A DNA stretch of 64,000 nt from the NCBI RefSeq assembly GCF_013315695.1, contig NZ_CP054353.1. One strand, written 5' to 3'. The notes beneath the pieces are model-generated. The model was not told where the DNA came from and ran no database searches. It was given only the letters and a program-made list of their open reading frames with translations. Every line of letters starts with the position of its first letter. Position 1 is the stretch's first letter. Position numbers and translations under genes: made by a program. The DNA is from Escherichia coli. Its GTDB lineage: Bacteria > Pseudomonadota > Gammaproteobacteria > Enterobacterales > Enterobacteriaceae. Below are positions 586-19,504 of the stretch, in pieces.

Positions 586-631
586 TGATCAGACATGAGA
601 TAAATGAAGGGGGATCCGTGAGATAAATAAC
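586..631. repeat. Left terminal inverted repeat with two GAGATAAAT motifs (candidate transposase binding sites)
   Basis: tgatcagacatGAGATAAATGaagggggatccgtGAGATAAATA; reverse complement of the right end reads tgatgcgccgcGCGATAAATGcactctatcttgtGCGATAAATG, with motifs at the same offsets (11 and 34). Confidence 0.65.
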
Positions 632-946
632 GAATTGGAGTGGGTTAACATGGGTTCTGGTGAACAGAACTGAAATTCTTTTCCGCTATACGATAGATAA
701 GTCGGGCATTGAAATCATCCTTCCTGGCAACTTAGAATCGAGTTTGCTGAAACATGACCCGTAACAAAAAGGATGATTCCAATGACTACTCAAAACAATA
801 AGCATGACAGCCTGGATTACTCAGAAAAGCCCAAAAGCAAGCACATTGTGACGTTCGAGCGCGATTCCGGTAGAAAAGGAGAATCGTCTTCCTCTGCCAA
901 TAAAACCACTATGCCGGCAGCTCCTGCTCCAGGGAAAAAATAAACA

Positions 947-1657: not shown

Positions 1658-1693
1658 TAAGGAGATTTTTGAAAGGACTTTAACAAGCAGGAA

Positions 1694-2092
1694 TTATCTG
1701 GATTTGTTAACGTCTTTCGTCTCCTCTGGCAGATCTTCATCAAACAACCTGCCCTGCATCCGATCCAGTTCTTCTTTTCTGACCCGCTTAACCACGCTGT
1801 AGACCCACTGAAGCGAAACACCAAAATTGCGGGCCAGTTCGTGGTGGTTGCGTCCGTTAAACTCCCTGAAGATTTCCCGGTCGCGCTGACTGACCTTCCA
1901 TACCATGCCCATCGGGAAATAAACGTTTTGCCCGCCCCAGACCTGCATCATTCGGTTCGCGACGGCCTGACCAATCTGGTCGGCAATTGCGGGCTCAATA
2001 TCAATAATCTCGCGAACGGTCTCAGAGGTATGCTGTGCCAGTTCCACCAGGAGTTCCGGCCCTTTACTTCGAAACTGATTCAGGTCGCTCAT
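1694..2092 (-). CDS. mor: Mor/C-family transcriptional activator (middle operon regulator-like)
   Basis: 132 aa; resembles phage Mu Mor as recalled (..HHELARNFGVSLQWVYSVVKR.. C-terminal HTH); sits after the GemA-like gene as in Mu. Confidence 0.75.
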   Translation of the reverse strand: MSDLNQFRSKGPELLVELAQHTSETVREIIDIEPAIADQIGQAVANRMMQVWGGQNVYFPMGMVWKVSQRDREIFREFNGRNHHELARNFGVSLQWVYSVVKRVRKEELDRMQGRLFDEDLPEETKDVNKSR

Positions 2093-2555
2093 GTTTTACT
2101 CCCGCAGCTCTGCGCTGCCACTTCTTCAGTTTCTCAATAACACTGCTTGCCTGTTCAGTATTGAGCCAGCGCAGGGCGCTGATGCCCGTTTCCCGCTTGA
2201 TCCACCGCGCTAATGCATTTTCTGAACGGTCACGAACAATGCCGGCAGCAGCCATTTCAAGCCATAGCGCACGGATTTTCCTGGACTGCGGATGGTTATC
2301 CAGCGGTAAACCGGAGCTGGCTTTTCTGGCAGGCTTAACGCGAAAGCCTTTCCTTTTCATGGATTCCAGCACGCAGTTTAGTTGTGTGGTATCCATTCCT
2401 TTGGTTGAGGCTTTACCGGTCAGCCCCTGTAACATCTGGCGGTAGGTGTCTTCATCCATACCCAGTTCATTACGGGCAATATGAATGAGCTGGATAAGAC
2501 GTTGTTTAGTCATCATCGTTGCTCCTTTTACCTGCGCCACCGATATAATCGACAT
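2064..2555 (-). CDS. GemA-like protein (Mu gp16 family)
   Basis: 163 aa ORF directly upstream of the mor-like gene on the same strand; sequence resembles Mu GemA/gp16-type proteins as recalled. Confidence 0.6.
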   Translation of the reverse strand: MSIISVAQVKGATMMTKQRLIQLIHIARNELGMDEDTYRQMLQGLTGKASTKGMDTTQLNCVLESMKRKGFRVKPARKASSGLPLDNHPQSRKIRALWLEMAAAGIVRDRSENALARWIKRETGISALRWLNTEQASSVIEKLKKWQRRAAGVKHERPESVSK

Positions 2556-2877
2556 ATAAAGGAAGCGCCACAGGCCAGCACAGGAACATCACCGACCAGC
2601 TAATCCAGTAGCCGGCACCACTGTAACGTGAATAAAACCCTGAACGGCGGTGCAGTTCAGCAGTACACCAACCGACAAAACAATACCAGAACAGGGCACA
2701 TACAACAGATTCAGCCGTCATTCTGAATATCCCCCCAACTGATATGAATATTACGGGCAGCAATGACAGGGTCGTTATTCCACCATGCACCTGACATGTA
2801 TTTTTCAACCTGTTCGCGTCCGGCAATAACACCAATTGTGATCCCCGGCCTGACGTTCTTAAAAAAGGCGCGGGCAA
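2506..2877 (-). CDS. Small hydrophobic protein; true start probably the internal Met near 2721
   Basis: Track ORF 123 aa; C-terminal 71 aa (MTAESVVCALFWYCFVGWC..WSVMFLCWPVALPLYV) has two hydrophobic helices; the N-terminal part overlaps ORF 2711..2941 in another frame. Confidence 0.3.
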   Translation of the reverse strand: MPAPFLRTSGRGSQLVLLPDANRLKNTCQVHGGITTLSLLPVIFISVGGIFRMTAESVVCALFWYCFVGWCTAELHRRSGFYSRYSGAGYWISWSVMFLCWPVALPLYVDYIGGAGKRSNDDD

Positions 2878-2941
2878 AAAGGTATCTGGCAGATATTCGG
2901 CAGGCTTTTAATTTCCGGCTGTTACCTGATAGCGTAATCAT
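2711..2941 (-). CDS. Hypothetical small phage protein
   Basis: 76 aa ORF tightly packed between neighbours in the early operon; no recognisable motif. Confidence 0.3.
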   Translation of the reverse strand: MITLSGNSRKLKACRISARYLFARAFFKNVRPGITIGVIAGREQVEKYMSGAWWNNDPVIAARNIHISWGDIQNDG

Positions 2942-3657
2942 CTGGCCTCCAGTTTCTGTTGTTCCTGCCCACTGACCGGGCGGTGCAGTCTGACGTTCTG
3001 CCCTTCACGAAACCCCGCATAGCGCGAGGCGTCGCCATTGCGGCTTCTTCCCGGTTTACGCGCCCTGGTGGTTTGCGTCTGCGGGTATTTATGTTCCAGC
3101 CACTGCTGCATCAGTTCACGCTCATCATCGGTCAGGGCAAAGGACTGTATTTCACTGATAACGGCCAGCACCCAGCCTTCGGCAAACTGGTCTCCACGGC
3201 TGGTGCGGGTGGCGGTTTTTATTCTTTTGTTCTGTGCACTGATATACTGCTGACGCGCCTTTTTCAGCTGACGGGCCAGCACTTCCCAGGTGTATGCAGC
3301 CAGTGCCGCACGTTCCCGGTTGCCGTAGAACCCCACAGACGGGTGCGTGCCGGGGTGAATGATGGAGTTAACACCAAATACCTCGCGGATGATGTTCATC
3401 AGGCCCAGCATGTAGCGCGGTGGACGGAGACTGCCTGTCGGCCAGTAGTGACTGATGGTTTCATCAATATCACTCATAGCAATGTCGGAATGTGTGATGC
3501 CGTGAACATCCATCAGTTTACGGGCTCGGCGCAGTGCCAGAGCGGCCTCGTGCGGGTTGCCGGATGCGGCCAGCGCCAGCAACTTTTTCAGTTTCTCAAT
3601 GTGTTTATTCTGGTCTGTCATTGTTCTGTATCTCCGGTATTTTTCTGCCGTTTCCAT
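2938..3657 (-). CDS. Hypothetical early protein, DUF2786-like N-terminal region
   Basis: 239 aa; N-terminal KLKKLLALAASGNPHEAALALRRARKLM resembles the DUF2786 motif common in Mu-like early regions (from memory). Confidence 0.55.
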   Translation of the reverse strand: METAEKYRRYRTMTDQNKHIEKLKKLLALAASGNPHEAALALRRARKLMDVHGITHSDIAMSDIDETISHYWPTGSLRPPRYMLGLMNIIREVFGVNSIIHPGTHPSVGFYGNRERAALAAYTWEVLARQLKKARQQYISAQNKRIKTATRTSRGDQFAEGWVLAVISEIQSFALTDDERELMQQWLEHKYPQTQTTRARKPGRSRNGDASRYAGFREGQNVRLHRPVSGQEQQKLEAR

Positions 3658-3833
3658 GCCCGGACAGCGTCGGACAGCTCTTTCAGGCTGTATGCTGCTT
3701 TAAGCTTTTCCCATAACCACTGTGTTGTTATGTGCATCAGCAGGGCAGCCAGGGCTGCCCCCGCACTGAGGCATGTCGCCAGGCCAGTAAGAATCAGTGT
3801 CCATGCGGTGATTTCCCTGAGTATGTCAGCCAT
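3618..3833 (-). CDS. Small membrane protein
   Basis: 71 aa with one hydrophobic helix (WTLILTGLATCLSAGAALAALLM); overlaps neighbours by a few codons, consistent with an operon. Confidence 0.4.
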   Translation of the reverse strand: MADILREITAWTLILTGLATCLSAGAALAALLMHITTQWLWEKLKAAYSLKELSDAVRAWKRQKNTGDTEQ

Positions 3834-3847
3834 TGAATGCCTCCCGG

Positions 3848-4144
3848 TTACTCGTTCGTGTAAATCACGCCCAGTCGTGCAGCCAGACGTTCCAGTTTTT
3901 TCTGTTTGTGGAAGTCAATCAGCCGGTCCATCCCCTGAAGGCGCAGTTGCTCTGTCATGATTTCCACGTCTGCCAGCTCTGCCGCGAGGTCACTTTCGCT
4001 GCCCTGTCCGTTCAGGTTGCGGGCGGCACTGGCCGCCAGTTCAGCGGCCTCTTCTGCCAGTTTCAGGGCCTGTGCGTCCGGCCCGAAACGCTGCAGGGCC
4101 AGACGGTAGAGGGCGGTGCGGGTGAGTTCGGTGTTTCGTGTCAT
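3848..4144 (-). CDS. MazG-like nucleotide pyrophosphohydrolase (small all-alpha NTP-PPase)
   Basis: 98 aa; acidic helix motifs LAEEAAELAAS and ELADVEIMTEQL resemble the EExxE/ExxD metal-binding helices of MazG/HisE-type pyrophosphatases. Confidence 0.5.
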   Translation of the reverse strand: MTRNTELTRTALYRLALQRFGPDAQALKLAEEAAELAASAARNLNGQGSESDLAAELADVEIMTEQLRLQGMDRLIDFHKQKKLERLAARLGVIYTNE

Positions 4145-4153
4145 GCCGCGCCC

Positions 4154-4426
4154 TCAGTGCTTCCGGCTGACGGTGATGTGCAGGCCGCCTTCTGCAGTGG
4201 TTTCCATCCGGTACGGCACCTCATGCTCTGCCGTGTGGGTGAGTGTGTTCATCAGTACCTGCAGGGCAGCCTCCTTTCCGTTGGTCGCCACAATGGCCTG
4301 TGTGGCCATGCTGATTAGCGCCGTCAGGACGTGATTCACATCGGTGAGGTCGCGGCATTCACACTCGTTGACATAGTGTTCAACAAGGGTTCGGGTGCGC
4401 TGTCGTGCTTCCTGTGGGGTAATCAT
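4154..4426 (-). CDS. Hypothetical early protein
   Basis: 90 aa ORF in the early operon; no motif recognised. Confidence 0.4.
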   Translation of the reverse strand: MITPQEARQRTRTLVEHYVNECECRDLTDVNHVLTALISMATQAIVATNGKEAALQVLMNTLTHTAEHEVPYRMETTAEGGLHITVSRKH

Positions 4427-4617
4427 TGCGCGTCCTCCCTGTCAGGGCGGGAGAATTCCATGACGGGCACGTCCGCCGAAAAATGCTGGCTGCAGTACGG
4501 GCAGACCAGGGTGACACGTACTGCAGGTATGTGATACTTACCGGACATCACGGCGATGGCGCTGTGAAAACGCAGGGCTGTTATATCCCTCTCGCACTGA
4601 ATACATTTAAATATCAT
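4423..4617 (-). CDS. Small zinc-ribbon-like protein
   Basis: 64 aa with CxxC ... CxxC spacing (CIQCERD ... CPYCSQ). Confidence 0.4.
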   Translation of the reverse strand: MIFKCIQCERDITALRFHSAIAVMSGKYHIPAVRVTLVCPYCSQHFSADVPVMEFSRPDREDAQ

Positions 4618-4714
4618 AATTTAATTCTCCTCTGTTTCCGGCGTGCAGAAGCCCACGGCGCTGACGCCGGAATAAAAAAGAAAATGTTTTTATTAAATAA
4701 TTAACGTGGTGTGT

Positions 4715-5245
4715 TTACTGCACATCCTGCTCAAAAGGAATTATTGAAAAATCCTCAATGTCGCTTTTAATGGAAATACCGGGAATATTTTTCACGGCCT
4801 CTTTTTCATTCAGAATGGCATCTTTATTTATTTCCTCCTTTACACGAATAAAGCGCTCAAGCCCCAGACGTCTCAGCAGTTCAATGACATTATCCGCCCC
4901 GCGAATGCTGACTGACGGCGGACGGTTTCGCCACTGCACCTCGCCGGTGGTGAGGTTAGCGAACTTCACCTTCCCGTTGCCGGTCAGTTCATCACGGTGC
5001 GCCTCACACCATGTCTGGATACCGGACTGCAGTTCGGCCATGCGTTTTTTCAGGCTCTCGGTGAGCGGGGCATAACGTGCAGTGATGTCGCCAATGGTGT
5101 CATTCATTTCTGTTTCAGCCCTGACCAGTTCACGTTGCGCGTCACCAAGCAGTCTGATTCCCTCAATGACCTCTTCGCGTGTCCCCGGCACCCAGAGTGC
5201 TGCTGCGGCTTTGATACGTTTTGCCCCTTTTGTACTTTTTGCCAT
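4715..5245 (-). CDS. gam: Gam-like host-nuclease inhibitor (DNA-end binding, Ku-like)
   Basis: 176 aa; strong resemblance to Mu Gam as recalled (AKRIKAAAALWVP.., ..CEAHRDELT.., ..RPPSVSIRG.., ..IEDFSIIPFEQ). Confidence 0.85.
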   Translation of the reverse strand: MAKSTKGAKRIKAAAALWVPGTREEVIEGIRLLGDAQRELVRAETEMNDTIGDITARYAPLTESLKKRMAELQSGIQTWCEAHRDELTGNGKVKFANLTTGEVQWRNRPPSVSIRGADNVIELLRRLGLERFIRVKEEINKDAILNEKEAVKNIPGISIKSDIEDFSIIPFEQDVQ

Positions 5246-5272
5246 ATTTTATGACTCCTCCTGTTGTGCTGA

Positions 5273-5542
5273 TTACCACAAAGATTCCGGCCACACGACG
5301 CGACAGCCGTGCAGTTCGAAAACGCCCTGACGGAAATATCCCCTGTGGTCATGTCCGGTATACAGATAACAGGCCTTTCCCTGCTCAAGCATGCGCATGC
5401 AATGCGCACTCCGGGAAACGCGGATGACAGGTTTGTTACCCCTGATGGTGATGCTTTGTACATCCGTGTTCGTCGCCTTAAGCGCCATAATGGCTGACTG
5501 CACTTTGCTGATTTGCTGGTTGATACCTGTGGTGGATTTCAT
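5273..5542 (-). CDS. Hypothetical early protein
   Basis: 89 aa ORF immediately downstream of the transposition ATPase gene. Confidence 0.4.
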   Translation of the reverse strand: MKSTTGINQQISKVQSAIMALKATNTDVQSITIRGNKPVIRVSRSAHCMRMLEQGKACYLYTGHDHRGYFRQGVFELHGCRVVWPESLW

Positions 5543-5544
5543 TA

Positions 5545-6750
5545 TTAAACCCCTTTGACAACGTCAGCGTTGACCTGTGGAACCCCGATTTCAGCGGCCA
5601 GATTCATGGCGGCTATCACCAGGTTACTGACGGCCAGCGGATACAGCAGGCTGACCATATTTTTACGATGACTTCCCGGATTGCTCAGGCGGGCACGTAT
5701 GGCATCCACTGCGCTGGCGTCCATAATGTCCGTCAGTTGTTTACCGGCCCGTTGCAGTTTGAACGTCAGAAATTCTTCAAGGTTATTGTCCAGAGGCAGA
5801 AGTTCGACCACCTCACAACGCTGAACGACTTCACGGACTTCCATATTGCGTTCAGACAGTTTTGTCGCCAGTTCCGGCTGGCCAATCAGCACGATGGACA
5901 GCAGTTTTTTGAAACCGGACTCCAGCTCAAAAAAGCGTTTGAGGTGTTTCAGTGTCGGAATGGGCAGACTGTGGGCCTCCTCAATCACCAAAACGTGGCT
6001 GAACCCCGCCTGGCTGCTGTCTTTCAGGACGCGATGCAACTGGCGAAAGCGGGCGTCCTGACTGCGTCTGATGCTTTCCAGTGGTGCGATGGTACTGATA
6101 ATGGCTTCGGCAATCGCTGCTGCCTTCAGGGTTTTCCCTTTCACATCGTTGTCTTCCATAGCGATGATGTATGGCTCGATAACAATTACCGGCGCATTCT
6201 CGCGGTTGATACGTTCAGTCAGGTCGCGGCGCAGCGTGGATTTACCCGCACCGGACTCACCGATGACGGCCATAAACCCACCATGACGGGCTGTCTGGTA
6301 CAACGCCTCACGCACGTAGCGAATGTCCGGGGTGGTGAACACATCATCAGAACCCTGCATGGCTTCATCGGCGAACGGGTCACGGAAAAGACCAAACGCT
6401 TTTTTGGTTGCTGGAAATAACACCTGTTTTTTGAGTAACATATTCTCTTCCTCACTGAGGCTCGTTTTATCTGTGGTACCCGCTGTACGGGGCGTGGCTG
6501 CGCCCTGTACAGCATCAAAACTCTTCGTTGTATCAATCCCCTGACTTTCCAGCCAGGACGCAAGACGCCGGCGCACTTCTCCGGGGCTGGTGCGGGGCCA
6601 CGCGTTATGATTCACAATCTGGGCCAGCGTGGCCTCAGAAACATCGACAGCTCTCGCCACCACCGCCTGTGGGATACGGGCCTCTTTCAGTTGCTGCTTC
6701 AGTACCAGCATGTTTTCCTCCTCAGTTGCCGTTAACAATGCTGATAACAC
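5545..6750 (-). CDS. Transposition ATPase (AAA+; functional analogue of Mu B / TniB-like)
   Basis: 401 aa; Walker A GESGAGKST and Walker B-like HVLVIEEAH; N-terminal HTH-like segment; directly downstream of the transposase. Confidence 0.85.
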   Translation of the reverse strand: MLSALLTATEEENMLVLKQQLKEARIPQAVVARAVDVSEATLAQIVNHNAWPRTSPGEVRRRLASWLESQGIDTTKSFDAVQGAATPRTAGTTDKTSLSEEENMLLKKQVLFPATKKAFGLFRDPFADEAMQGSDDVFTTPDIRYVREALYQTARHGGFMAVIGESGAGKSTLRRDLTERINRENAPVIVIEPYIIAMEDNDVKGKTLKAAAIAEAIISTIAPLESIRRSQDARFRQLHRVLKDSSQAGFSHVLVIEEAHSLPIPTLKHLKRFFELESGFKKLLSIVLIGQPELATKLSERNMEVREVVQRCEVVELLPLDNNLEEFLTFKLQRAGKQLTDIMDASAVDAIRARLSNPGSHRKNMVSLLYPLAVSNLVIAAMNLAAEIGVPQVNADVVKGV

Positions 6751-8491
6751 TGCTGCGTGCCGGCGTGGTCAGCGTGGCCATGACTTCATCCAGTGCAGCT
6801 TCCGGTACGCCGTCCGGGTACTGTGCCGTTAACTGGCGGTAATGTTCCGGCGTCCAGGTAAGGCCGTCGGCGCTGAACTTATCGCGCAGGGCTTTCGCGG
6901 CCTCCACATGAGTCATGGGACGTTGTTCAGTGCGCGGCCCGCGTACGTCAGAGGCCTGACCACGCTTCGGCATATAGGCCGGAAGTGTGGTGTCGTCGAT
7001 ATGTTTATACGGGTCAAGCCGCCCGCCGAACGGCAGCGCCTTCGCCTTGCGTGCGGCGGCTGCATCTGCGGCGTTGTCTGTACCGGTAACCAGCGCTTCA
7101 GTTTCTTTTGCCGCCATCTGTGCCGAGGTTTCCGGCAGGGCTTTGTAACTTTCGCCAAATACCGCCGCGCCTTCAGCAAAGCCAAACTCGTTCTTTCTGA
7201 CCTCTTCGACCAGGAAGAACGTCTCGTGGCCGTCCTCACCGGTCAGAACCACCTGTGCCACATCGCTGCGCCATGGGTTACGGGTAATCATCAGTTTTTC
7301 ACCAACCAGTACGCCCGGTACCGTTGATACGTCAAATTCAGTGCCCCGGAACGAGACACGAAGTTTTGGCGTGACTTTGCGGAGTTCTGGTGCCGCCACA
7401 GCCAGTTCACGACATACCTCAACGGAAGGCGCTTTTTTCAGCTGCTCAGCAGTAATCTTCAGCCAGATATCCGTGCGGGTTTTACCGTGGCGGCTGTGAA
7501 CAGCCGTGGCGTTAAAGTGGCTGCGCCATTTCGCGGCCAGCGCGTTGAGTTCTTCCAGACTGTGAACCGGCCGGAACTTCAGCCCCGGCTCCAGCTTGCG
7601 TTCGATAATGTCACGCGCCTTTTCCACCTGTCCGGTGGCGCGGGCGTTATGCGGCTTGTGCGCTATCAGGTCGATGCCCAGTGAGCGGCACATGTTTTTC
7701 GTCATACCCGCGGTGTTTGCCGAGCCGGGGTCGAGATAGAGTATTTTCGGCACGCCGTGCAGCACGTCTGCGCCGCCACGCTCCTGCATGGCGTTGATAA
7801 GCACAGAGCACAGGTTCTCACCTGATTCCGCGCCCGTCACATACTCAACGTAAATCCAGCCGCTGGCATGGTCGGTAATCTCGTAACTCCACACGCGGTC
7901 ACTGGCGATACGGGCAAGGTTAGCGGGCTTGTTCTTGTAGAACTTCGCGCTGTCCATCACCTGCAGCCCTTTATGTCCATTGCTCAGGTAGTAAAGCGTG
8001 CAGAGTGAGGCGTCAATCTGCCAGACATGATTGGGATGCAGACTGGCCACTTCGGTATGTGGTGCAGGGGCATCCAGTTGTTCCGGGTGCAGGCCATAGT
8101 TACGCAGAGCACGGCTGATGGCATCTTCAGACAACGGGAAAAACTCACTGGTGGTTTCATCTGTTCTGCCTGCGGTGATAAAGCCGTTAGCCCGCAGGGT
8201 TTCCACTGCATCTGCGATGGAATAGAGACGCTTACCGTTCTTGCGGGTGGCCTCACGCAGTGTGGCAGATATCAGCGCGGCTTCGTCGCGGGTCAGGGCG
8301 CTGCGCCCGGCATCGGCGCGTTTTTTGCGTTTATCAGTCACAGAGACCTCCTTCAGCCTGCGCAGCAGAGTGGCGCGGGACATGCCAAGTTCAGCACAGG
8401 CAGCGTCGTATATTGCACCGCGTTTACCATGCCCCGCGTCACGTGCCGCGCGGGCGACATAAACCAGTCGTTCAGTCAGGGCAGCATTCAT
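6722..8491 (-). CDS. DDE transposase (Mu A-like, integrase-core fold)
   Basis: 589 aa; N-terminal HTH, central HVWQIDASL-type DDE core; paired with an AAA+ ATPase gene as in transposable phages. Confidence 0.85.
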   Translation of the reverse strand: MNAALTERLVYVARAARDAGHGKRGAIYDAACAELGMSRATLLRRLKEVSVTDKRKKRADAGRSALTRDEAALISATLREATRKNGKRLYSIADAVETLRANGFITAGRTDETTSEFFPLSEDAISRALRNYGLHPEQLDAPAPHTEVASLHPNHVWQIDASLCTLYYLSNGHKGLQVMDSAKFYKNKPANLARIASDRVWSYEITDHASGWIYVEYVTGAESGENLCSVLINAMQERGGADVLHGVPKILYLDPGSANTAGMTKNMCRSLGIDLIAHKPHNARATGQVEKARDIIERKLEPGLKFRPVHSLEELNALAAKWRSHFNATAVHSRHGKTRTDIWLKITAEQLKKAPSVEVCRELAVAAPELRKVTPKLRVSFRGTEFDVSTVPGVLVGEKLMITRNPWRSDVAQVVLTGEDGHETFFLVEEVRKNEFGFAEGAAVFGESYKALPETSAQMAAKETEALVTGTDNAADAAAARKAKALPFGGRLDPYKHIDDTTLPAYMPKRGQASDVRGPRTEQRPMTHVEAAKALRDKFSADGLTWTPEHYRQLTAQYPDGVPEAALDEVMATLTTPARSSVISIVNGN

Positions 8492-8494
8492 TGG

Positions 8495-9409
8495 TTATGC
8501 CTCCAGCCCGTTAATCTGTGGCGTCGGCTCAGTCAGCCATGAAGGCGCTGCATTGCCTGTTGGCTCGTCCGGCAGGTCAAATGTGGAGCGCAGGCTACGC
8601 GCTGTGCTTTCCAGTTGACAGACCAGGCCTGCCATGAAGTCTCTGGGGGTATCAATCATGTTTTCAGCACAATATGCGCACAGCGTCTCAAAAGCGCTGG
8701 ACAGTCGGACGGCGATAGCAGATTCCGCCTCAACCGCTAATGCTGTTACTTCCGCCCGCAGCTTCTTAACCTCCTCATCAGGCTCAGGCGGCTGAATACG
8801 GGATTTCTTCTCCAGTCTGGTGGAGAGTGAATCTATTTTTTCATTTTTGTCGGCGAGTACGCGCTGTTGTGCTGCGTTGGTTTCGCGCGCTTCGCGCAGG
8901 GCCTGACGCAATTCACGTACTGACATGCGATCAACGTCGTCAAGCGTCAGGCCGGCAACTGTGCCGCCGTCGGCCAATTCATCAAGTTCTTCATTATCCA
9001 GAACCATCAGGTCGTACAGTTTGGCTTTCCCCAAAACGCTCAACGTTGAGCGTTTTGTTGGCTCATCACCTTCTCCCAAAAACTTCATACTGGCTTGCAT
9101 CATGCGGCGAGCAACTTGTGGTGCAAGTCCGAGTTCATTTTCTAAAATGTTTGTAAAATCACCGTGTGGCTCATTTTCTTTTAAGATGATCAGCCGCTTA
9201 CCCGCTTCCAGCATAGATTCAGCACTCTGCGCCATATAAAAACGTGCTTCGTGAACAATGCGATCACGTTCATAAGGCAGTCCATCACCAAACTGCTGCA
9301 TAATTTCCATGCGATGCTGTGTCATAGCGTTCAAATTGACATTGATGTTATCTGACAGCGGAACCTCAACATTCAGTTCAGTGTTAACGGGTGATTTGGT
9401 GCGTCCCAT
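8495..9409 (-). CDS. Hypothetical protein with coiled-coil region, between ner-like gene and transposase
   Basis: 304 aa ORF; heptad-rich central region (..RELRQALREARETNAAQQRVLADKNEKIDSLSTRLEKK..). Not recognised. Confidence 0.45.
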   Translation of the reverse strand: MGRTKSPVNTELNVEVPLSDNINVNLNAMTQHRMEIMQQFGDGLPYERDRIVHEARFYMAQSAESMLEAGKRLIILKENEPHGDFTNILENELGLAPQVARRMMQASMKFLGEGDEPTKRSTLSVLGKAKLYDLMVLDNEELDELADGGTVAGLTLDDVDRMSVRELRQALREARETNAAQQRVLADKNEKIDSLSTRLEKKSRIQPPEPDEEVKKLRAEVTALAVEAESAIAVRLSSAFETLCAYCAENMIDTPRDFMAGLVCQLESTARSLRSTFDLPDEPTGNAAPSWLTEPTPQINGLEA

Positions 9410-9419
9410 TGATTACTCC

Positions 9420-9791
9420 TTACAAACGACTACCTGAAATAACTCGTTGGTTGATTTCGTTAATACGATCCTGTGCACGCGCCATCTCGTGACTGTGAGC
9501 CATGGCGATCTGTAGTAACTGGATTCCCGGTGCGAAACGTCCGTTCTCTAATTTCATGGCCAGTCCCTCTTCAATAAGGGTATTAAGTGCTCGATTGATA
9601 TTCGCCGGGGACTCCCCCAGGGCTGATGCCAGTTCACCGTTAGAAACACCGTTCAGAGCATGACCGCGTAGAGCTTTGAGTACACGTAGGATGCGGGTCC
9701 CAGAACTGGAAATATTTACTTTACTCATGTCACATTTCCATTTTTGCAATATGTGATAACCTGTTGCATATGTGGAAAATTTATGCCGCAT
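9420..9791 (-). CDS. Putative DNA-binding protein (HTH-like)
   Basis: 123 aa; segment LNGVSNGELASALGESPANINRALNTLIEEGL resembles a winged-helix/HTH element. Confidence 0.4.
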   Translation of the reverse strand: MRHKFSTYATGYHILQKWKCDMSKVNISSSGTRILRVLKALRGHALNGVSNGELASALGESPANINRALNTLIEEGLAMKLENGRFAPGIQLLQIAMAHSHEMARAQDRINEINQRVISGSRL

Positions 9792-9969
9792 TTGACGTGG
9801 GTTTTAATCCCAGTTTTACGGCAATTTCATGGGCTTTGCCGTAACGAGCTTTGGTCTGTCCATTGAGAACACGATAGACCTCATTGCGGCTGTAGCCGTG
9901 TTCTTCGGCCCAGCGGGTAAACGTGATACCACGCTGACGGAAGAGATTTTTAACTTGTTCGGAAGTCAT
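9781..9969 (-). CDS. ner: Ner/Nlp-family DNA-binding protein
   Basis: 62 aa; resembles Ner/Nlp family (..TFTRWAEEHGYSRNEVYRVLNG..KARYGKAHEIAVKLG); first gene of the leftward early operon, divergent from the repressor. Confidence 0.75.
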   Translation of the reverse strand: MTSEQVKNLFRQRGITFTRWAEEHGYSRNEVYRVLNGQTKARYGKAHEIAVKLGLKPTSNAA

Positions 9970-10018
9970 TGTTGTCTCCTTTGTTGATGCAATGATGTTT
10001 GTTTTATATGTGATAGAT

Positions 10019-10038
10019 TATGAGAACTATTGTTCTCA
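10019..10038. promoter_or_regulatory. Candidate operator: 8-bp inverted repeat ATGAGAAC-N4-GTTCTCAT between the ner-like and repressor genes
   Basis: Perfect inverted repeat read directly from the sequence in the divergent control region. Confidence 0.35.
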
Positions 10039-10481
10039 TTGTCAATGAGGTTTGTGTGAATTTTGATTCTCTTTGCGCGTCGCGGTTCAAAGCTGAGCGT
10101 TCGCGGTTATCACTCAAGCAGGCTGAAGTAGCAGCCCTTTGTGGCGTTTCAAGAGAAATGTGGGGGAAATATGAACGAGGGGTTGCTGTTCCCGGAGGTG
10201 AGTTACTTGCAGCCTTTGCAAGAATTGGGGCCAATGTACAGTTCATTCTTACCGGGGAGTCATCAGGTATAACTTTATCACGTGATGAAATGGAGTTACT
10301 GCAGCACTACCGGCAGGCACCATTACAGGTCAAAGGTTCAGTTTTGTCGGCCTTGACTACTGGCTCCTCCAGAGAACGGGCGGAACAGGTTATTCATGGA
10401 GATGTTCTGGGGAATGTTATCAAAGGTAACGTAACCATAGGAACAGGTGGAATAATGAACAAAAATACCAAGAGAAGATGA
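10020..10481 (+). CDS. Phage repressor (XRE-family HTH); start codon uncertain, possibly GTG at 10056
   Basis: 153 aa; HTH LSLKQAEVAALCGVSREMWGKYERG; divergent from the early operon as for a c-type repressor. Confidence 0.7.
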   Translation: MRTIVLIVNEVCVNFDSLCASRFKAERSRLSLKQAEVAALCGVSREMWGKYERGVAVPGGELLAAFARIGANVQFILTGESSGITLSRDEMELLQHYRQAPLQVKGSVLSALTTGSSRERAEQVIHGDVLGNVIKGNVTIGTGGIMNKNTKRR

Positions 10482-11464
10482 GTAAAGAGAAGCAAACAGT
10501 TAACGGGGATGTGGGTAACGTTGTCAGCGGTGATGTTACCATTCATAACTATTCTGCTGACATACTTCCTTCGGCCCAGCAACCAATTTCGTTGCTGCAA
10601 AAACGCGATTTACACAGATTGATGGATGAATTGGTTGATCTGGGGGAAAGTAAGCGCGAGCTATGGATGACGATCCACACGAAACTTAATACCAAAACAG
10701 TTAATGAAATGACTGCGGCTGATTATCATGGTGCGGTTGAGATCCTTCAGAGATATGCACAACAGATCCAGAATATGAAGGACTGTAATCTTCTGGTCAG
10801 CAAAATAATGGCGCTTACTGACCCTGGGTATCGTCTTGACCGTGACAGATACTGTCTGAAGCATTTCGGTACAACCCATCTTAAAGGCCTAGACAAAGAG
10901 CAGTTGCAGGCTGTGTTTGGTTATTTTGATGATCTGCTGAATATTCGTGATGAGAGTAAAACTCTATCACCTCCATCGGAAAGCGGTGCAAAATCAGTCG
11001 CAACTGTACCAACCAGAAGCCGGAAGCCTCATGTAGTAGTGTTGGGGGGAGTGTTAGTTCTTGTAGCAATATTTTTCGTGGGAATGATTGTGTTCGCTGG
11101 TAAATGGGGAAATGCCAAAGCAGTAGCTTCTACTGAAACCAGCGTTTTTAACATTAAAACCAACGATAAAATAATAGAAGATTCCATCCCCGCACTGCGC
11201 AGCATGTTTCCAGGGTTAAATAAGTACTCAGATGATTTCCATTCGGTTTCAAGCTACAAGCAAAAAACGGGCTGGCATACCCTTAAATTTACTGTATCAG
11301 CAAAGGCATCCGTCCCCGAAAATTATAGTGTTAAGGGCAAGGTTTGTTACATTAACATAAGCCCTGATGGTAGTTATGCTCGGGTTTTGACTGCTCCATG
11401 TCGTTCACTGCTACTTGATCAGCAAAGCACTCCTGACAGTAAATACCGTTTTATTCTTAAATAG
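10478..11464 (+). CDS. Hypothetical bitopic membrane protein, translationally coupled to the repressor
   Basis: 328 aa; ATG overlaps the repressor stop (ATGA at 10478..10481); single hydrophobic helix VVVLGGVLVLVAIFFVGMIVFAG around aa 186-208; no family recognised. Confidence 0.6.
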   Translation: MSKEKQTVNGDVGNVVSGDVTIHNYSADILPSAQQPISLLQKRDLHRLMDELVDLGESKRELWMTIHTKLNTKTVNEMTAADYHGAVEILQRYAQQIQNMKDCNLLVSKIMALTDPGYRLDRDRYCLKHFGTTHLKGLDKEQLQAVFGYFDDLLNIRDESKTLSPPSESGAKSVATVPTRSRKPHVVVLGGVLVLVAIFFVGMIVFAGKWGNAKAVASTETSVFNIKTNDKIIEDSIPALRSMFPGLNKYSDDFHSVSSYKQKTGWHTLKFTVSAKASVPENYSVKGKVCYINISPDGSYARVLTAPCRSLLLDQQSTPDSKYRFILK

Positions 11465-11545
11465 AAAATAACAGCTGAATTACCATGGGATCAGAAAAAA
11501 GACAAAGGCGGCATCATGCTGCGTTCTGAAATTTTAATGTAAAAG

Positions 11546-12136
11546 GTGATGAACATGGCAGGGATTCAGGTTATCGCAGGAAGTTTTCCTAAAGGGTGGG
11601 CAAGCATGGGGTTCGGTACCATCGTGTTTGCCAAAAAAACAAAACAAGGCTTTCCTGAAAATATTGTATTAAATCTGAAAGAAGAGCTTTTATCGATTGA
11701 ACTTGCGGATAGTGAAGAGGAAAGCCGTATAGGTAAGGCGGCAGGCGCAGGTTTGCTTGGTGGATTAATCTTTGGTGGTGCAGGGTTGGTCATTGGAGGT
11801 TTGCTTGGTGCGGCGGACAAGACGAAAAAAACTATCACTTTTAAGGCAATGTTTACGGGAAATAGGTTACTTCTGGCTAAAACAGATTCAAAAACTTTTG
11901 TAAAACTTCAGTCAATTGCTGCTGATAATGCCCATAACGCATCTGTAATCAACATGAAGCAAACTAATAGGGGCGATGTTTCTTCTCGTAAACAACTAAC
12001 AGAAAATCCACAGCAGCAAGACTTACCTGCGCCCGCTACAACAGTAAAAATGACTGCCAAAGATAAGTTAGAATCGGCTCTTGGGCTGGGAATCATCGTT
12101 ATAGCTGTTTGGGCAATAATACACTTCTTTTTTTAG
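11546..12136 (+). CDS. Hypothetical membrane protein with glycine-zipper segment and C-terminal hydrophobic anchor
   Basis: 196 aa; GAGLLGGLIFGGAGLVIGGLLGAA and C-terminal LGLGIIVIAVWAIIHFFF; possible RBS aaaggtga upstream. Confidence 0.5.
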   Translation: MMNMAGIQVIAGSFPKGWASMGFGTIVFAKKTKQGFPENIVLNLKEELLSIELADSEEESRIGKAAGAGLLGGLIFGGAGLVIGGLLGAADKTKKTITFKAMFTGNRLLLAKTDSKTFVKLQSIAADNAHNASVINMKQTNRGDVSSRKQLTENPQQQDLPAPATTVKMTAKDKLESALGLGIIVIAVWAIIHFFF

Positions 12137-12137
12137 T

Positions 12138-12160
12138 GCAGCCCTTCAGGGCTGTTTCTG
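12138..12160. terminator. Hairpin between convergent genes (possible bidirectional terminator)
   Basis: gcagccc-ttca-gggctg stem-loop followed by tttctgtt, between ORF 11546..12136 (+) and 12174..12650 (-). Confidence 0.4.
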
Positions 12161-12173
12161 TTCAGGAGGTATC

Positions 12174-12650
12174 TTAAGGATTATCCGGGGCGTTTTCCTG
12201 TTTGCCGTACTTCGGAGACGAACAACATTCTGTTGGCTGACCGGTGAGTTTACGTAACTCCTTCATGAGCAGCTCCTGATCGTAAACTGTCATCAGTGCC
12301 GCAATGGTGGCATGCAGTGCATCGGGCAGTATCCAGGGTTGCCGGCCCGTGGGGCATATAACATCCAGCAGCTCATTCGTCCGACAGATACGCTCCTCGC
12401 CGTATGACAACAGGCCCTGTCCCGTGTATTCCTCTAGCCTGATCACTGTGCCACCCCGTGGCTTCTGCCAGGTCGTCAGATCTTCGCCATTCATACGGCG
12501 CTCATTCTCCACGTCAGCAGCATCGACAATGACGCTGTTTCCGAGTTCCTGTTTCACCATCTCTTCTATCCGCGCCAGTACGTAACTTTTACCGCTGCCC
12601 ACAGGACCGGACACAGTGACAGTGATGACCGGATTCAGTGTGTGCGTCAT
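12174..12650 (-). CDS. Small P-loop NTPase / kinase-like protein
   Basis: 158 aa; Walker A GPVGSGKS at residues 15-22; convergent with the preceding membrane-protein gene. Confidence 0.55.
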   Translation of the reverse strand: MTHTLNPVITVTVSGPVGSGKSYVLARIEEMVKQELGNSVIVDAADVENERRMNGEDLTTWQKPRGGTVIRLEEYTGQGLLSYGEERICRTNELLDVICPTGRQPWILPDALHATIAALMTVYDQELLMKELRKLTGQPTECCSSPKYGKQENAPDNP

Positions 12651-12747
12651 ATCGTATTCTCCTCTGTGAATAATTCATCGTTTATCCTGCACATCCCGTA
12701 TCCCCGGCTCTCTTAACGCGCTTTAAAATCCTTCGCGCCCTGTATTT

Positions 12748-13131
12748 GTGATGCTGTCTCCACCAAACGAGGAGACACACATGAAAAACCTGAAAAAATT
12801 CATTCCCCCTGTTAAAAAACCTCGCCTCAGCGGCTGGCTGCTGACCTCAGTGCTGTTGCTGGGCACCATCGCTCTGGTCTCACCACAGCAGCTGCCTGTT
12901 GTGATCTACAAGCTGGCACTCATCACGCTGGCAGCAGTGCTGGGTTACTGGCTTGACCGTTCGCTCTTCCCCAAAGCCCGTCCCGGTCAGTACCTGAAAC
13001 ATGACGACAGGCTGATGGCTGAAGGGCGTTTCCCGGTACAGACCGGCCTTCACCTGGTGTTTTCTGCTGCGTTAATCCGCCGTGCACTGATTGTTGCAGC
13101 GGTCTGCCTGGCTGTTGCGATGGGGCTTTAA
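12748..13131 (+). CDS. Putative holin / small membrane protein upstream of the endolysin
   Basis: 127 aa with 2-3 hydrophobic helices (LLTSVLLLGTIALV, LALITLAAVLGYW, LIVAAVCLAVAMGL); position immediately before the endolysin gene. Confidence 0.45.
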   Translation: MMLSPPNEETHMKNLKKFIPPVKKPRLSGWLLTSVLLLGTIALVSPQQLPVVIYKLALITLAAVLGYWLDRSLFPKARPGQYLKHDDRLMAEGRFPVQTGLHLVFSAALIRRALIVAAVCLAVAMGL

Positions 13132-13133
13132 TC

Positions 13134-13874
13134 ATGAACTGGCCGCAGATCACCTGGATTGTATGCATGTCCCTGAAACTGGCTTTCGAAGCCTTTCGGG
13201 TCTTCATCAGAACCGAACGCCTGTCAGTCCGCGCCGGGACCTTTCTGGTTCATATGGCATGGGTATTCTTTGTCGCAATGTTGCTCTGGTGTGGCGGCTT
13301 TTTCAGCCAGGCATGCGCAGCACAACCTCCGCAGGCTGCGCTGCAGTATCGCGATGATGTGATCCGTAATGCCCGGCTTGAATGGGGACTGTCTGCGCCG
13401 GTGGCCGATTTCGCCGCGCAACTGCATCAGGAAAGCGGCTGGCGACCTGATGCGATCTCGCCGGCTGGCGCTCAGGGACTGGCGCAGTTCATGCCTGCCA
13501 CTGCCGACTGGATAAGCCAGTTGATACCGATGCTGAGCAGTCGTGAGCCGTTTAATCCGGCATGGGCTATCCGGGCGCTGGTCAGCTATGACCGCTGGCT
13601 GTGGCAGCGTGTCAGCGCCGCCAGTGACTGCGAGCGTATGGCCATGACACTGTCGGGCTATAACGGTGGTCTGGGCTGGGTACAACGGGACAGGCGGCTT
13701 GCATCACAGAAAGGTCTGGACAGCACCCGCTGGTTCGGACATGTCGCCACGGTGAATGCCGGACGCAATGCGGCCAGCTGGCGGGAGAACCGCCATTATC
13801 CGCAGCGCATCCTGCGCGAACTGGCACCGCGATATCTCACATGGGGAGGCAGCAGTTGTGTGGCATCTGGTTAA
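13134..13874 (+). CDS. Endolysin, lytic transglycosylase (SLT domain), possibly signal-anchored
   Basis: 246 aa; SLT-type motifs QLHQESGWRPDAIS, GAQGLAQFMPAT and SGYNGG; an N-terminal hydrophobic segment may mean a later start around 13254. Confidence 0.8.
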   Translation: MNWPQITWIVCMSLKLAFEAFRVFIRTERLSVRAGTFLVHMAWVFFVAMLLWCGGFFSQACAAQPPQAALQYRDDVIRNARLEWGLSAPVADFAAQLHQESGWRPDAISPAGAQGLAQFMPATADWISQLIPMLSSREPFNPAWAIRALVSYDRWLWQRVSAASDCERMAMTLSGYNGGLGWVQRDRRLASQKGLDSTRWFGHVATVNAGRNAASWRENRHYPQRILRELAPRYLTWGGSSCVASG

Positions 13875-14508
13875 AAAGCTGCCGTGGCGCGGCATTCTGC
13901 TGGCCATTCTTATCAATGCCTTTCTGGTCGGCCTGTATGCCATGGGATACAGAAGTGGTCATGACTCTGCAAAGCGTGACGGTGATACCGCGCTCAGTCA
14001 GTTGCAGTCAGCATTTGACGCGTACAAAACGGAGCAGGCAACGCTTGAGAATGCTGCGCTGCGGGCCTGGGCCAGACGGTATCAGGAGCAGGTGGCCGCC
14101 GGGCAGCGGGCTGAAGCCGGTTATCTTGAGCAGATTGCTCAACTGGAGAGCCGGAACAAACAACTACAGGGGCAAATTAACGATGTCACACAGCGCTGGA
14201 TTGATGAAAAAGGTAAGAGTCATCCCATTGAGTGCGTGTTTACTCGCGGTTTCGTGCGCCAGTACAACGCCGCACTCGGGTATGACAACGCATCTGTCGA
14301 CACCGGTCATTCAGACTCAGTTGCCGCCACTGGCACCCGCTCTGGCACAGCGACCGGGCAACCTGAAACCACTGACACCCGGTTACGCGATTCGGGTGTC
14401 TCCCAGCGTGACGTTCTCGCCAACATCATCGACAACGCAGGACAATGTCGTCGCTGGCGGAACCAGATAAACGCGTTACTGGATGAACGGGAAGGATTAC
14501 AGAAATGA
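13858..14508 (+). CDS. i-spanin (Rz-like), GTG start preceded by GGGGAGG
   Basis: N-terminal hydrophobic helix ILLAILINAFLVGLYAMGY followed by a coiled-coil-like periplasmic region; immediately after the endolysin. Confidence 0.6.
   Translation: MWHLVKKLPWRGILLAILINAFLVGLYAMGYRSGHDSAKRDGDTALSQLQSAFDAYKTEQATLENAALRAWARRYQEQVAAGQRAEAGYLEQIAQLESRNKQLQGQINDVTQRWIDEKGKSHPIECVFTRGFVRQYNAALGYDNASVDTGHSDSVAATGTRSGTATGQPETTDTRLRDSGVSQRDVLANIIDNAGQCRRWRNQINALLDEREGLQK
14204..14470 (+). CDS. o-spanin (Rz1-like lipoprotein) embedded in the +1 frame of the i-spanin gene
   Basis: MKKVRVIPLSACLLAVSC lipoprotein signal with lipobox Cys, followed by proline-rich PVIQTQLPPLAPALAQRPGNLKPLTP; entirely inside the i-spanin gene. 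Confidence 0.6.
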   Translation: MKKVRVIPLSACLLAVSCASTTPHSGMTTHLSTPVIQTQLPPLAPALAQRPGNLKPLTPGYAIRVSPSVTFSPTSSTTQDNVVAGGTR

Positions 14509-14831
14509 CACTGCAGGTTGAATTCTGGACGGTGGTGAGTTTTTTGCTCACCTTCATGGGGTTTGTGGGAGGGCTCGCCAAATGGTTGTTCAGTAAAACA
14601 GAAGAACGCCAGGCGGCACGATTCGCCTCTCTTGAACAGGCCCTGCAACAGTCCGCATCCAACTGGGGCGAGCTGGAAAAAGAATTTATGCGATTTAAAG
14701 CGGATTTACCGCTGAATTATGTCCGTCGCGAGGATTATATCCGTGGCCAGACAGTCATCGAGGCCAAACTGGACGCGCTTTATAACAAACTGGAAGTGGT
14801 ACAGCAGTACCGCAATACCGGAGGTCAATAA
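14505..14831 (+). CDS. Small membrane protein (Mu gp25-position)
   Basis: 108 aa; N-terminal hydrophobic helix VVSFLLTFMGFVGGLAKWLF; start overlaps the i-spanin stop. Confidence 0.45.
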   Translation: MTLQVEFWTVVSFLLTFMGFVGGLAKWLFSKTEERQAARFASLEQALQQSASNWGELEKEFMRFKADLPLNYVRREDYIRGQTVIEAKLDALYNKLEVVQQYRNTGGQ

Positions 14832-15142
14832 TGGTCGATATTACCCGGGTACGCCGCGAATCCCTGCGCTGGAGTCTGCTGGTTGCCCTGAACAAAACCC
14901 GCCCTTACACCGCCAGCGAAACGTTGCTGCTGGACGTGTCCCGCGCCATCTACCCGGACACCACGCAACTGGAGCTGCGCCGGGAGCTTGATTATCTGGC
15001 AGATCGCAAAATGGTGGAGCTGGAGAAGAGACCGTCCGGTGACTGGTTTGCCGATCTGAGTCGCCTTGGTGTGGATATTGTGGAATACACCGTGGAATGC
15101 GGCCCGGGTATTGCCCGACCGGAAAAATACTGGAGTGAGTGA
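14831..15142 (+). CDS. Hypothetical protein (Mu gp26-position)
   Basis: 103 aa ORF, translationally coupled to neighbours. Confidence 0.45.
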   Translation: MVDITRVRRESLRWSLLVALNKTRPYTASETLLLDVSRAIYPDTTQLELRRELDYLADRKMVELEKRPSGDWFADLSRLGVDIVEYTVECGPGIARPEKYWSE

Positions 15143-15687
15143 TTATGGGACGTCGCAGCAGCATTGATTCTCTGCCGACGGATGTCCGCCGCTGGCTGGA
15201 GCGGGCGCTGACGGAGAATAATTTCACCGGCTATGCTGAACTTGAAAGTTTGTTAAAAGAGAGGGGATATGTGATAACCCGCTCCTCCCTGCAGCGGTTC
15301 GGCTACAAAATGGAGCAGCAACTGGCCCGTGTTCGTGCGGCAACTGAAGCAGCCAGGCTGATGGCTCGTGAAGCGGGGGATGATGCGGATGACCGTTCTG
15401 CGGGACTGATGACGTTGATCCAGACGGAGATGATCGACATCCTGATGCGTCTGCAACAAGTCAGTGACGAGAATGATCCGACTGATCGGGCGAAATTGCT
15501 GGCCACCGCTTCCCGCAATATTGCGACCCTGACCCGCGCCTCTGTCAATCTCAAGCGTTTTCAGAGTGAGGTCAAGGAAAAAGCAGAACTTGCAGCGAAT
15601 GCGGCCGAGAAAATTGCCCGTAAGGGCGGATTGTCAAGCGACGCAGTACAGGCACTTCGTCGCGAGATTCTGGGGATTGCCACATGA
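15139..15687 (+). CDS. Terminase small subunit-like protein (Mu gp27-position)
   Basis: 182 aa immediately upstream of and overlapping the large terminase gene. Confidence 0.6.
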   Translation: MIMGRRSSIDSLPTDVRRWLERALTENNFTGYAELESLLKERGYVITRSSLQRFGYKMEQQLARVRAATEAARLMAREAGDDADDRSAGLMTLIQTEMIDILMRLQQVSDENDPTDRAKLLATASRNIATLTRASVNLKRFQSEVKEKAELAANAAEKIARKGGLSSDAVQALRREILGIAT

Positions 15688-17207
15688 GCCAGTTCACGCC
15701 GGTAATACCAGACACTTCCGGTTATGATGCCCCTCCCGTTCTGTTGCCCTACCAGCAGCGCTGGGTGGCAGATGCCTCTCCGCTTAAGGTGATAGAAAAG
15801 AGCCGTCGTACCGGTATTACATGGGCTGAGGCATCCGATAACGTACTGACCGCCGCCTCTTCTGCGCCAGCAGGCGGGATGAATGTGTATTACATCGCTT
15901 ATAACCAGGACATGACCGTCGAATACATTCAGGCGTGTGCGATGTGGGCACGGGCATTCAACTATGCGGCCAGTGAAATTGAAGAAGGATTCTGGGAAGA
16001 GGACGACGACGACAAACACATCAAGACTTACACCATCAAATTTCCTGACTCCGGCTTTCGTATTGTTGCGCTCTCCAGCCGCCCGTCTAACCTGCGTGGC
16101 CGTCAGGGTATTATTGTTATCGACGAAGCGGCGTTCCATGAGCAACTGGACGAACTGCTGAAAGCGGCGCTGGCGATGCTTATCTGGGGGGGAAAGGTAC
16201 GCGTTATCTCCACCCATGACGGTGACGACAATCCGTTCAATACGCTTATCGGGGATATCCGTGCCGGACGTCAGGGAGGCAGCGTACATCGCATCACTTT
16301 CCGGGAAGCCGTATCTGAGGGGCTGTTCCGGCGCGTCTGTCTGCGCACCGGGAAGGAATGGTCAGAGGCATCCGAGCAGGCCTGGATGGCGTCGGTGTAC
16401 AAATTCTACGCTGCCGGCGCATCCGAAGAGCTTGACTGTATTCCGGTCAACGGTGGCGGCGCCTGGCTGTCCCGTGCCCTGATAGAGTCCCGCATGTCCG
16501 CTGATACGCCGGTATTGCGTCTGACCTGTCAGGAAGGTTATGAACTGCTGTCTGATGAGGTTCGCTTCCACGAGACACAGGACTGGCTTGATGAGCATCT
16601 GAAACCCTTGCTGGAGGCACTCCCCGCTGATGCCCGCTCTTTCCTGGGGCGCGACTTTGGCCGTAGCGGTGATTTGTCGGTGGACTATCCCCTGCTGCAG
16701 GAGAAGAACCTGGTACGACGCGTGCCATTCGTACTGGAGCTGCGTAACGTGCCGTTCAGACAGCAGGAGCAAATCACCTGGTATCTGATGGATGGCCTGC
16801 CCGGTCTACTGGGTGCAGCGTTTGATGCCCGTGGTAATGGTGCCTATCTGGCTGAATACGCCATGCAGCGCTACGGCTCCAGCCGGGTTCAGCAGGTGAT
16901 GCCAACTGAAGGCTGGTACCGGGAGCATATGCCTCCGGTCAAAGCTGCACTGGAAGACGGTAACCTGGTGGACTTACCAAAGGATGAAGACACACTGGAT
17001 GACCTGCGGGCCGTTCAGGTGGTGAACGGTGTCCCCCGCGTGCCGGAGCAACGCTCAAAAGCAAAGGCTGACGGTGGTAAACGCCACGGGGATTCAGCCA
17101 TCGCACTGGCGCTGGCGTATTTCGCCAGCCGTGAAATTAACAAAGGGCCGGTGAAGGCAAGCTCACGCCGTCGTCGTCAGGCGGCCCGTATGCTGGAGGG
17201 ATTCTGA
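15684..17207 (+). CDS. Terminase large subunit (Mu gp28-like)
   Basis: 507 aa, directly before the portal gene; size and position typical of Mu-type TerL. Confidence 0.8.
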   Translation: MSQFTPVIPDTSGYDAPPVLLPYQQRWVADASPLKVIEKSRRTGITWAEASDNVLTAASSAPAGGMNVYYIAYNQDMTVEYIQACAMWARAFNYAASEIEEGFWEEDDDDKHIKTYTIKFPDSGFRIVALSSRPSNLRGRQGIIVIDEAAFHEQLDELLKAALAMLIWGGKVRVISTHDGDDNPFNTLIGDIRAGRQGGSVHRITFREAVSEGLFRRVCLRTGKEWSEASEQAWMASVYKFYAAGASEELDCIPVNGGGAWLSRALIESRMSADTPVLRLTCQEGYELLSDEVRFHETQDWLDEHLKPLLEALPADARSFLGRDFGRSGDLSVDYPLLQEKNLVRRVPFVLELRNVPFRQQEQITWYLMDGLPGLLGAAFDARGNGAYLAEYAMQRYGSSRVQQVMPTEGWYREHMPPVKAALEDGNLVDLPKDEDTLDDLRAVQVVNGVPRVPEQRSKAKADGGKRHGDSAIALALAYFASREINKGPVKASSRRRRQAARMLEGF

Positions 17208-19502: not shown

Positions 19503-19504
19503 CA

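Follow-up and report, generated by a model that had tools for sequence, protein, structure and literature searches.

A DUF3102-family gene directly upstream of the transposase in a B3/BcepMu-type prophage of Escherichia coli and its possible part in transposition

The closest described relatives of the gene analysed here are found in the transposable phages B3, BcepMu, phiE255 and KS10. The proteins of these phages (B3 ORF13, BcepMu gp10, phiE255 gp41 and KS10 gp15) are members of PHROG 1748, a family to which no functional annotation is attached, and the corresponding Pfam domain is DUF3102 (PF11300). In the genome paper of KS10 the protein was named 'conserved hypothetical' (PMC2628397). The conserved markers of transposable phages have been given as TnpA, TnpB, Mor and GemA, and the DUF3102 gene was not discussed among them (PMC8705779). 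In the B3-like phage Fc02 a homologous early operon is turned on upon induction, and its transcriptome left most early-operon ORFs besides A, B, gemA and mor without an assigned function (PMC9936078). The published literature on DUF3102, PF11300, BcepMu gp10, transposable-phage reviews, Saltoviridae and Beetrevirus was searched and no functional study was found; the protein is already known as a catalogued family, and its function is unpublished.

The 304-aa ORF under study was compared with these proteins. It showed full-length homology, equal length and an equal slot, and its identity to the phage proteins of Burkholderia and Pseudomonas was 40-52%. Nothing essential was different, and the ORF represents an enterobacterial allele. 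The window, that is the whole stretch of 64,000 nucleotides of E. coli DNA that was analysed (contig NZ_CP054353.1), contains the gene within the early operon of a prophage, with the following features.

586..38076, no strand: transposable prophage, inserted in dgcQ, with TG..CA-type ends, TGAT...ATCA
10017..10045, minus strand: early promoter-like site TTGACA-17-CATAAT, 11/12 matches, sigma-70-like, upstream of the ner-like gene
9781..9969, minus strand: ner-like HTH protein, early operon gene 1 (Pfam, PHROG)
9420..9728, minus strand: winged-HTH (wHTH) protein, 102 aa, IclR-type HTH, PHROG 1368, pI 10.7, of the B3 ORF14 and BcepMu gp12 family
9416..9421, minus strand: Shine-Dalgarno sequence AAGGAG, 6 nt 5' of the ATG of the next gene, overlapping the stop codon (TAA) of the wHTH gene before it
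8495..9409, minus strand: DUF3102/PHROG 1748 ORF, 304 aa, ATG start, TAA stop, equal to RefSeq WP_000533821.1
6722..8491, minus strand: transposase A, 589 aa, rve/DDE, B3/Tn552 type, without the Mu I-alpha domain (Pfam, PHROG)
5545..6711, minus strand: transposition ATPase B, AAA_22/ExeA-like, PHROG 296 (Pfam, PHROG)

The host dgcQ sequence breaks off at 585 and picks up again at 38077, and the 6-bp direct repeat ACTGGT borders the prophage on both sides (580-585 and 38077-38082). A 6-bp duplication is the footprint of B3/Tn552-family transposases (PMC8705779). Each prophage end carries GNGATAAAT twice, inverted at the two ends and 23 bp apart (597 and 620; 38065 and 38042), and these repeats are likely transposase-binding sites; internal copies, sought across the prophage as a possible enhancer, were not found. 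The Pfam analysis of transposase A revealed an rve core without Mu-specific domains, and its closest phage relatives were PhiKM (classified as Bcepmuvirus), KP12, phiE255, BcepMu and B3. The prophage is a B3/BcepMu-type transposable phage and not a Mu-type one. The earlier note, which was made from the sequence alone, had taken Mu as the reference for the element, and this choice has to be replaced by the B3/BcepMu type, where the present gene order is the norm. Its statement that Mu has no gene between ner and A is in agreement with the phage collection, in which Mu was not among the tblastn matches of the DUF3102 ORF.

Two other regions of the prophage were also observed. A low-GC block (41-45%) at 10478-12650, between the repressor and lysis genes, contains ORFs of 328 aa and 196 aa, the latter with hydrophobic stretches, and a minus-strand 158-aa ORF named 'ABC transporter ATPase' in RefSeq; the block looks like lysogeny-expressed cargo. 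The right end (about 36200-38000) holds genes for tail-fibre assembly and for a 'recombinase family protein', as named by RefSeq in matching genomes, and is reminiscent of the Gin invertible host-range segment of Mu.

The early operon runs in the order ner-like gene, wHTH gene, DUF3102 gene, transposase A, ATPase B, with Gam and other genes after them. Since one strong promoter lies 5' of ner and no terminator-like site was found on the minus strand between the early promoter and the transposase, the DUF3102 gene is the third cistron of this operon. The ORF had been described earlier with the right coordinates and the right length of 304 aa, and as the sole gene between the ner-like gene and the transposase; the 102-aa wHTH gene also lies there. 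The mechanical ORF of the wHTH gene is 123 aa long (9420-9791, minus strand), and its start is probably the ATG at 9728, giving 102 aa in agreement with RefSeq and the PHROG profile. In most B3-type phages the wHTH and DUF3102 genes occur together, but KS10 has the DUF3102 gene without it. The spacer between the -35 and -10 elements of the early promoter (10017-10045) contains a perfect palindrome, TGAGAAC-AATA-GTTCTCA, which is likely an operator for the divergent repressor (10020-10481) or for Ner. A repeated motif, (T)ATCACATAT / ACATAT(T)GCAA, was noted in the ner leader (about 9995-10010, minus strand) and twice between ner and the wHTH gene (9729-9780), and may be a regulator-binding site.

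The evidence for the DUF3102 gene itself was analysed. The protein is 100% identical to WP_000533821.1, whose RefSeq name is 'DUF3102 domain-containing protein'. It matched Pfam DUF3102 with 28.5 bits over residues 65-173 (31.0 bits for the isolated head alone), which exceeds the curated gathering cutoff (24.4 bits), and the same domain was matched by 43 of 46 aligned relatives. The PHROG 1748 profile matched over the full length, its positions 1-300 (of 302) aligning with residues 1-302 (E 8.4e-141). The label 'unrecognised', given to the protein earlier, is thereby withdrawn. A scan of 1.8 billion cluster representatives, with clusters defined at 50% identity, gave about 1650 homologue clusters at E<=1e-3 and 219 at E<=1e-30, and the 5.8 kb around the gene was found in 643 of 5426 complete E. 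coli genomes. In pairwise comparison with eight viral-contig alleles the dN/dS ratio was 0.05-0.2 in every segment of the gene and 0.06-0.09 in the neighbouring transposase A. Mass spectrometry of an ESBL E. coli strain has detected a 'DUF3102 domain-containing protein', QGA32870, whose gene adjoins that of an HTH protein (QGA32871) and lies five genes from Gam (QGA32865) (PMC9927464). QGA32870 is probably the orthologue of the 304-aa ORF because the gene order, which is the basis of this assignment, is identical. Given the strong Shine-Dalgarno sequence, the low dN/dS, the number of clusters and the probable orthologue in proteomics, the ORF is regarded as a genuine protein-coding gene under purifying selection throughout. 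The transposase ATG at 8491 lies 3 nt past the stop of the ORF, and a GGAGG is present ahead of it within the last codons of the ORF; this tight spacing is compatible with translational coupling of the two genes.

The position of the gene was examined among related phages. A homologue lies directly 5' of the transposase in B3 (ORF13), BcepMu (gp10), phiE255 (gp41) and JBD25 (gp15), as well as in Bise, Microcystis phage Mae-JY22, KS10 (gp15) and two metagenome contigs, and in the B3/BcepMu-type phages examined it is usually preceded by a gene for a roughly 100-aa IclR-type wHTH protein. The phage collection contained 69 records with a B3-type transposase, 67 of them with a tblastn-detectable homologue, and the genus breakdown was equal. 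The two remaining records, Leptolyngbya phage Lsp-JY19 and Komp_PAO1_1, have an ORF of 311 or 331 aa in the slot, which is of the JBD25 head subtype. Eighty IMG/VR loci were retrieved with the family profile, and in every one of the 77 that had enough downstream DNA the transposase comes next, usually 3 nt past the stop. This result bears out the conservation of position for which a check in related prophages had been proposed. The slot is conserved in phages of Proteobacteria and cyanobacteria, and phages of the B3/BcepMu lineage as a rule encode a protein of roughly 300 aa directly 5' of the transposase.

Phages of the PhiKM type have an extra 105-aa ORF (PHROG 5446) between the DUF3102 gene and the transposase, as at 27544-27861 (minus strand) of locus L092, and this insertion was also seen in the PhiKM-type IMG/VR loci L034-L039, L046 and L055. 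IncF plasmids of Enterobacter and Citrobacter encode a 243-aa protein with the DUF3102 core only (hhalign 99.2%), which heads a cassette with a Mor-family activator and a tape-measure gene and no transposase (L095, 6899-9763; L096, 6899-9891). A transposase-independent role was considered on the basis of these cassettes and rejected, as they are probably remnants of a deleted Mu-like prophage kept on plasmids or phage-plasmids.

The distribution of the gene was further compared with that of the N-terminal I-alpha domain (HTH_Tnp_Mu_1) of Mu-type transposases. KS10 gp15 belongs to PHROG 1748 over its full length (E 2.6e-53; hhalign 97.6%), and the transposase downstream of it is very different, being 541 aa long with the Mu C-terminal domain present and I-alpha absent. 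Ralstonia YO012_1 has a Mu-type transposase of 560 aa without I-alpha, and an ORF of up to 374 aa located 4 nt 5' of it aligned weakly with the DUF3102 core (hhalign 50%, E 1.7e-4). The D3112 transposase (690 aa) carries HTH_Tnp_Mu_1 (E 7.6e-44), and between ner and A of D3112 the DUF3102 gene is missing, three small unrelated ORFs being present instead. D3112-like Pseudomonas phages are numerous, with 120 Pseudomonas matches to the KS10 transposase core in the phage collection, and they were not among the DUF3102 matches there; the Pseudomonas count was 51 DUF3102 matches against 52 B3-type transposase matches. This comparison, which rests on four lineages plus Mu, suggests that the DUF3102 gene is present with transposases that lack I-alpha (B3 type, KS10 and probably Ralstonia) and absent with those that have it (D3112 and Mu).

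The domain organisation of the protein was studied with an AlphaFold2 monomer model built with an 80-sequence alignment (mean pLDDT 89), in which a helix at residues 20-40 is followed by a helical head at 48-161. The parts of the protein are as follows.

8921..9274, minus strand: residues 46-163, conserved DUF3102 core, HTH-like helical head (Pfam, AlphaFold2, alignment)
9077..9166, minus strand: residues 82-111, predicted helix-turn-helix (HGDFTNILENELGLAPQVARRMMQASMKF), helices 82-93 and 97-111, by structural resemblance only
8582..8920, minus strand: residues 164-276, three long helices, hairpin or bundle (AlphaFold2), a module common to head variants (JBD25 gp15)
8498..8581, minus strand: residues 277-304, acidic tail lacking K and R, modelled at low confidence (AlphaFold2, composition)
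8537-8545, minus strand: PxW motif, P289-S-W291, in the tail (alignment)

Near-invariant residues of the core are G70, L73, K77, E78, H82, G83, A100, K130, L134, L145, G148, M162, E166 and L167, and the most conserved segment of the family, L145-x2-GG-x3-G-x2-LDD-x4-M-x3-EL-x3-LR, lies in the head. The central region had been described earlier as heptad-rich; long helices are indeed modelled there (164-205, 210-249 and 256-276, at pLDDT 95-98), and the monomer model folds them as an intramolecular hairpin or bundle. The whole protein is acidic (pI 4.75). Among 80 relatives the tail retains P289 in 80%, PxW in 40 of the 80 sequences and a Trp in acidic context in about 60.

The Foldseek search of the whole model against the PDB gave nothing at E<=0.001, and ParB/KorB/VirB-type families appeared only at E 0.2-4. 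Structure matches in BFVD were confined to uncharacterised or DUF3102 phage proteins, some of them from phages not known to transpose. The predicted head shows at most a weak resemblance to the central HTH domains of ParB, KorB, VirB and SopB. No ParBc or related Pfam match to the ParB/Srx (CTP-binding) N-terminal domain was obtained at E<=0.1, and the model contains helices only before the HTH. The head may thus be described as an HTH-containing helical domain, 'ParB-DBD-like at best', and not as a member of the ParB family.

Some family members of 430-545 aa (P0168, P0205, P0235, P0242, P0248 and P0268) carry an N-terminal extension of 150-280 aa before the DUF3102 head, and three of these extended members have repeated Cys/His-rich units, possibly zinc-binding repeats. 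A Rosetta-stone fusion in the extended members was considered and dropped, as the extensions contained no Pfam domain. Similarly, a SAP/HeH reading of 'LTLDDVDRMSVRELRQALREAR' is not claimed, the weak Pfam SAP matches being found in just 2 of 46 sequences.

The two halves of the protein were found to behave as separate modules. JBD25-type proteins (PHROG 4623) have the C-terminal half in common (hhalign 97.9%) and a different HTH-like head. Identity among enterobacterial alleles is 66-88% for the head and 93-100% for both the C-half and the transposase, and dS is 0.8-1.5 for the head against 0.06-0.2 for the C-half and 0.08 for the transposase. The breakpoint falls at the head/C-half border (8921-9409 against 8498-8920; loci L021-L048), so that the variable segment comprises the head and the wHTH gene and the conserved segment the C-half, A and B. 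The jump in dS indicates recombination between two modules and not positive selection. The PhiKM type shows the reverse pattern, with the C-half 77% and A 99% identical, and a strict co-variation of C-half and transposase, which had been considered, is not supported because this type breaks it.

The searches for a function were negative within their scope. No protein of established function was matched in Pfam, PHROGs, NCBIfam, PADLOC or PDB sequence searches; the PDB sequence searches with the protein and with the 80-sequence profile returned coiled-coil noise only, NCBIfam and Rfam gave nothing relevant for the ORF, and none of the PADLOC defence or anti-defence families was matched. The earlier note had named homology to a Mu-like early protein of established function as its refutation, and neither the family nor the PDB sequence searches returned any: Pfam, PHROG and NCBIfam revealed no homology to Ner, A, B, Kil, Gam, GemA or Mor. 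The same searches recognised the neighbours of the ORF as Ner-like, A, B, Gam, GemA and Mor. The DNA-binding domain of MuA I-alpha and the Mu repressor (HTH_Tnp_Mu_1, PF02316) gave no Pfam or winged-helix fold match, and the TniQ Pfam domain gave no match at E<=0.1.

The DUF3102 protein is tentatively interpreted as an accessory subunit that acts in trans within the machinery of transposition and replication, a reading that may well be right though it falls a little short of an even case. It draws on the synteny, the single operon, the architecture, the conserved PxW, the modularity, the complementarity with I-alpha and the purifying selection. The HTH-like head would attach either to DNA itself or to a partner already on the DNA, for instance the basic wHTH protein, with the helical hairpin serving for oligomerisation or as a spacer. 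Docking of the acidic PxW tail on the transposase, or on the AAA+ ATPase, would promote or gate transpososome assembly. The protein could in this manner stand in for the N-terminal I-alpha (enhancer/operator-binding) domain that MuA-type transposases carry in cis. MuA I-alpha of the Mu- and D3112-type transposases is proposed as a functional analogue from the distribution only; the DUF3102 protein differs in being a separate polypeptide, and no sequence or fold similarity was detected. Several points count against an accessory subunit, namely that the protein is acidic, that the fold evidence is weak, that no I-alpha similarity was found, that the C-half and tail are variable and A and B constant, and that the comparative sample is small. 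The Tn552 transposase, moreover, works alone in vitro.

A stronger form of the accessory-subunit reading is doubtful. It holds that PHROG 1748/DUF3102 is an obligatory third subunit in all transposable phages without I-alpha, acting as a DNA- or wHTH-bound adaptor whose acidic PxW tail would recruit or license the transposase or the ATPase; the B3/BcepMu system would then be a transposon of three or four components, nearer in mechanism to Tn7/Tn5053 than to Mu. The TniQ/TnsD adaptors of Tn7/Tn5053-like elements show a similar three-component logic, with a Tn552/TniA-related rve transposase and an AAA_22/TniB-like ATPase, and docking of a tail peptide on the ATPase is a recurrent theme in that superfamily. 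The differences are that the DUF3102 protein has no TniQ domain, that its gene lies upstream of the transposase whereas the TniQ-type gene lies downstream of the ATPase, and that phage integration needs no specific target.

The protein might alternatively be a DNA-binding regulator or DNA organiser of the early operon, KorB/ParB-DBD-like and paired with the basic wHTH protein as KorB is with KorA. Its target would then be early or middle transcription, or the topology of the phage DNA, and its link with the transposase would be one of operon position only. This alternative is considered unlikely.

A role as an adaptor for host takeover, in which the acidic Trp tail and the helical body bind a host protein and ready the cell for replicative transposition, is less likely again. 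Candidate targets would be replication restart, the clamp, a ClpX-type unfoldase, a nucleoid protein or a defence factor. The acidic, all-helical protein with its disordered tail and short conserved motif would suit such a role, as would a head that diverges faster and is more mosaic than A, B or the wHTH protein. However, dN/dS stays at or below 0.2 with no sign of an arms race, PADLOC and anti-defence family matches are absent, and a partner within the phage is favoured by the coupling to the transposase, which is strict in hosts as different as Enterobacteria and cyanobacteria.

The earlier note had offered either an accessory factor or early cargo, and of these the accessory factor is favoured because the position upstream of the transposase is strict. 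Dispensable cargo (a moron) or a spurious ORF has as its sole support the lack of any known function, and is effectively excluded by the conservation data, that is the universally conserved slot and the purifying selection together with the Shine-Dalgarno sequence, the homologue clusters and the probable orthologue in proteomics.

As it stands, the gene encodes a catalogued domain of unknown function, DUF3102, in its usual place. The prophages that carry it are common: this one or close relatives occur in about 12% of complete E. coli genomes, ST131 included, and B3/BcepMu-type relatives are also present in Pseudomonas, Burkholderia, Salmonella and Klebsiella. Should transposition prove to require the DUF3102 protein as a cofactor, any minimal B3-type transposition system or genetic tool would have to include it, and its action would show how a transposase without an enhancer-binding domain is regulated.
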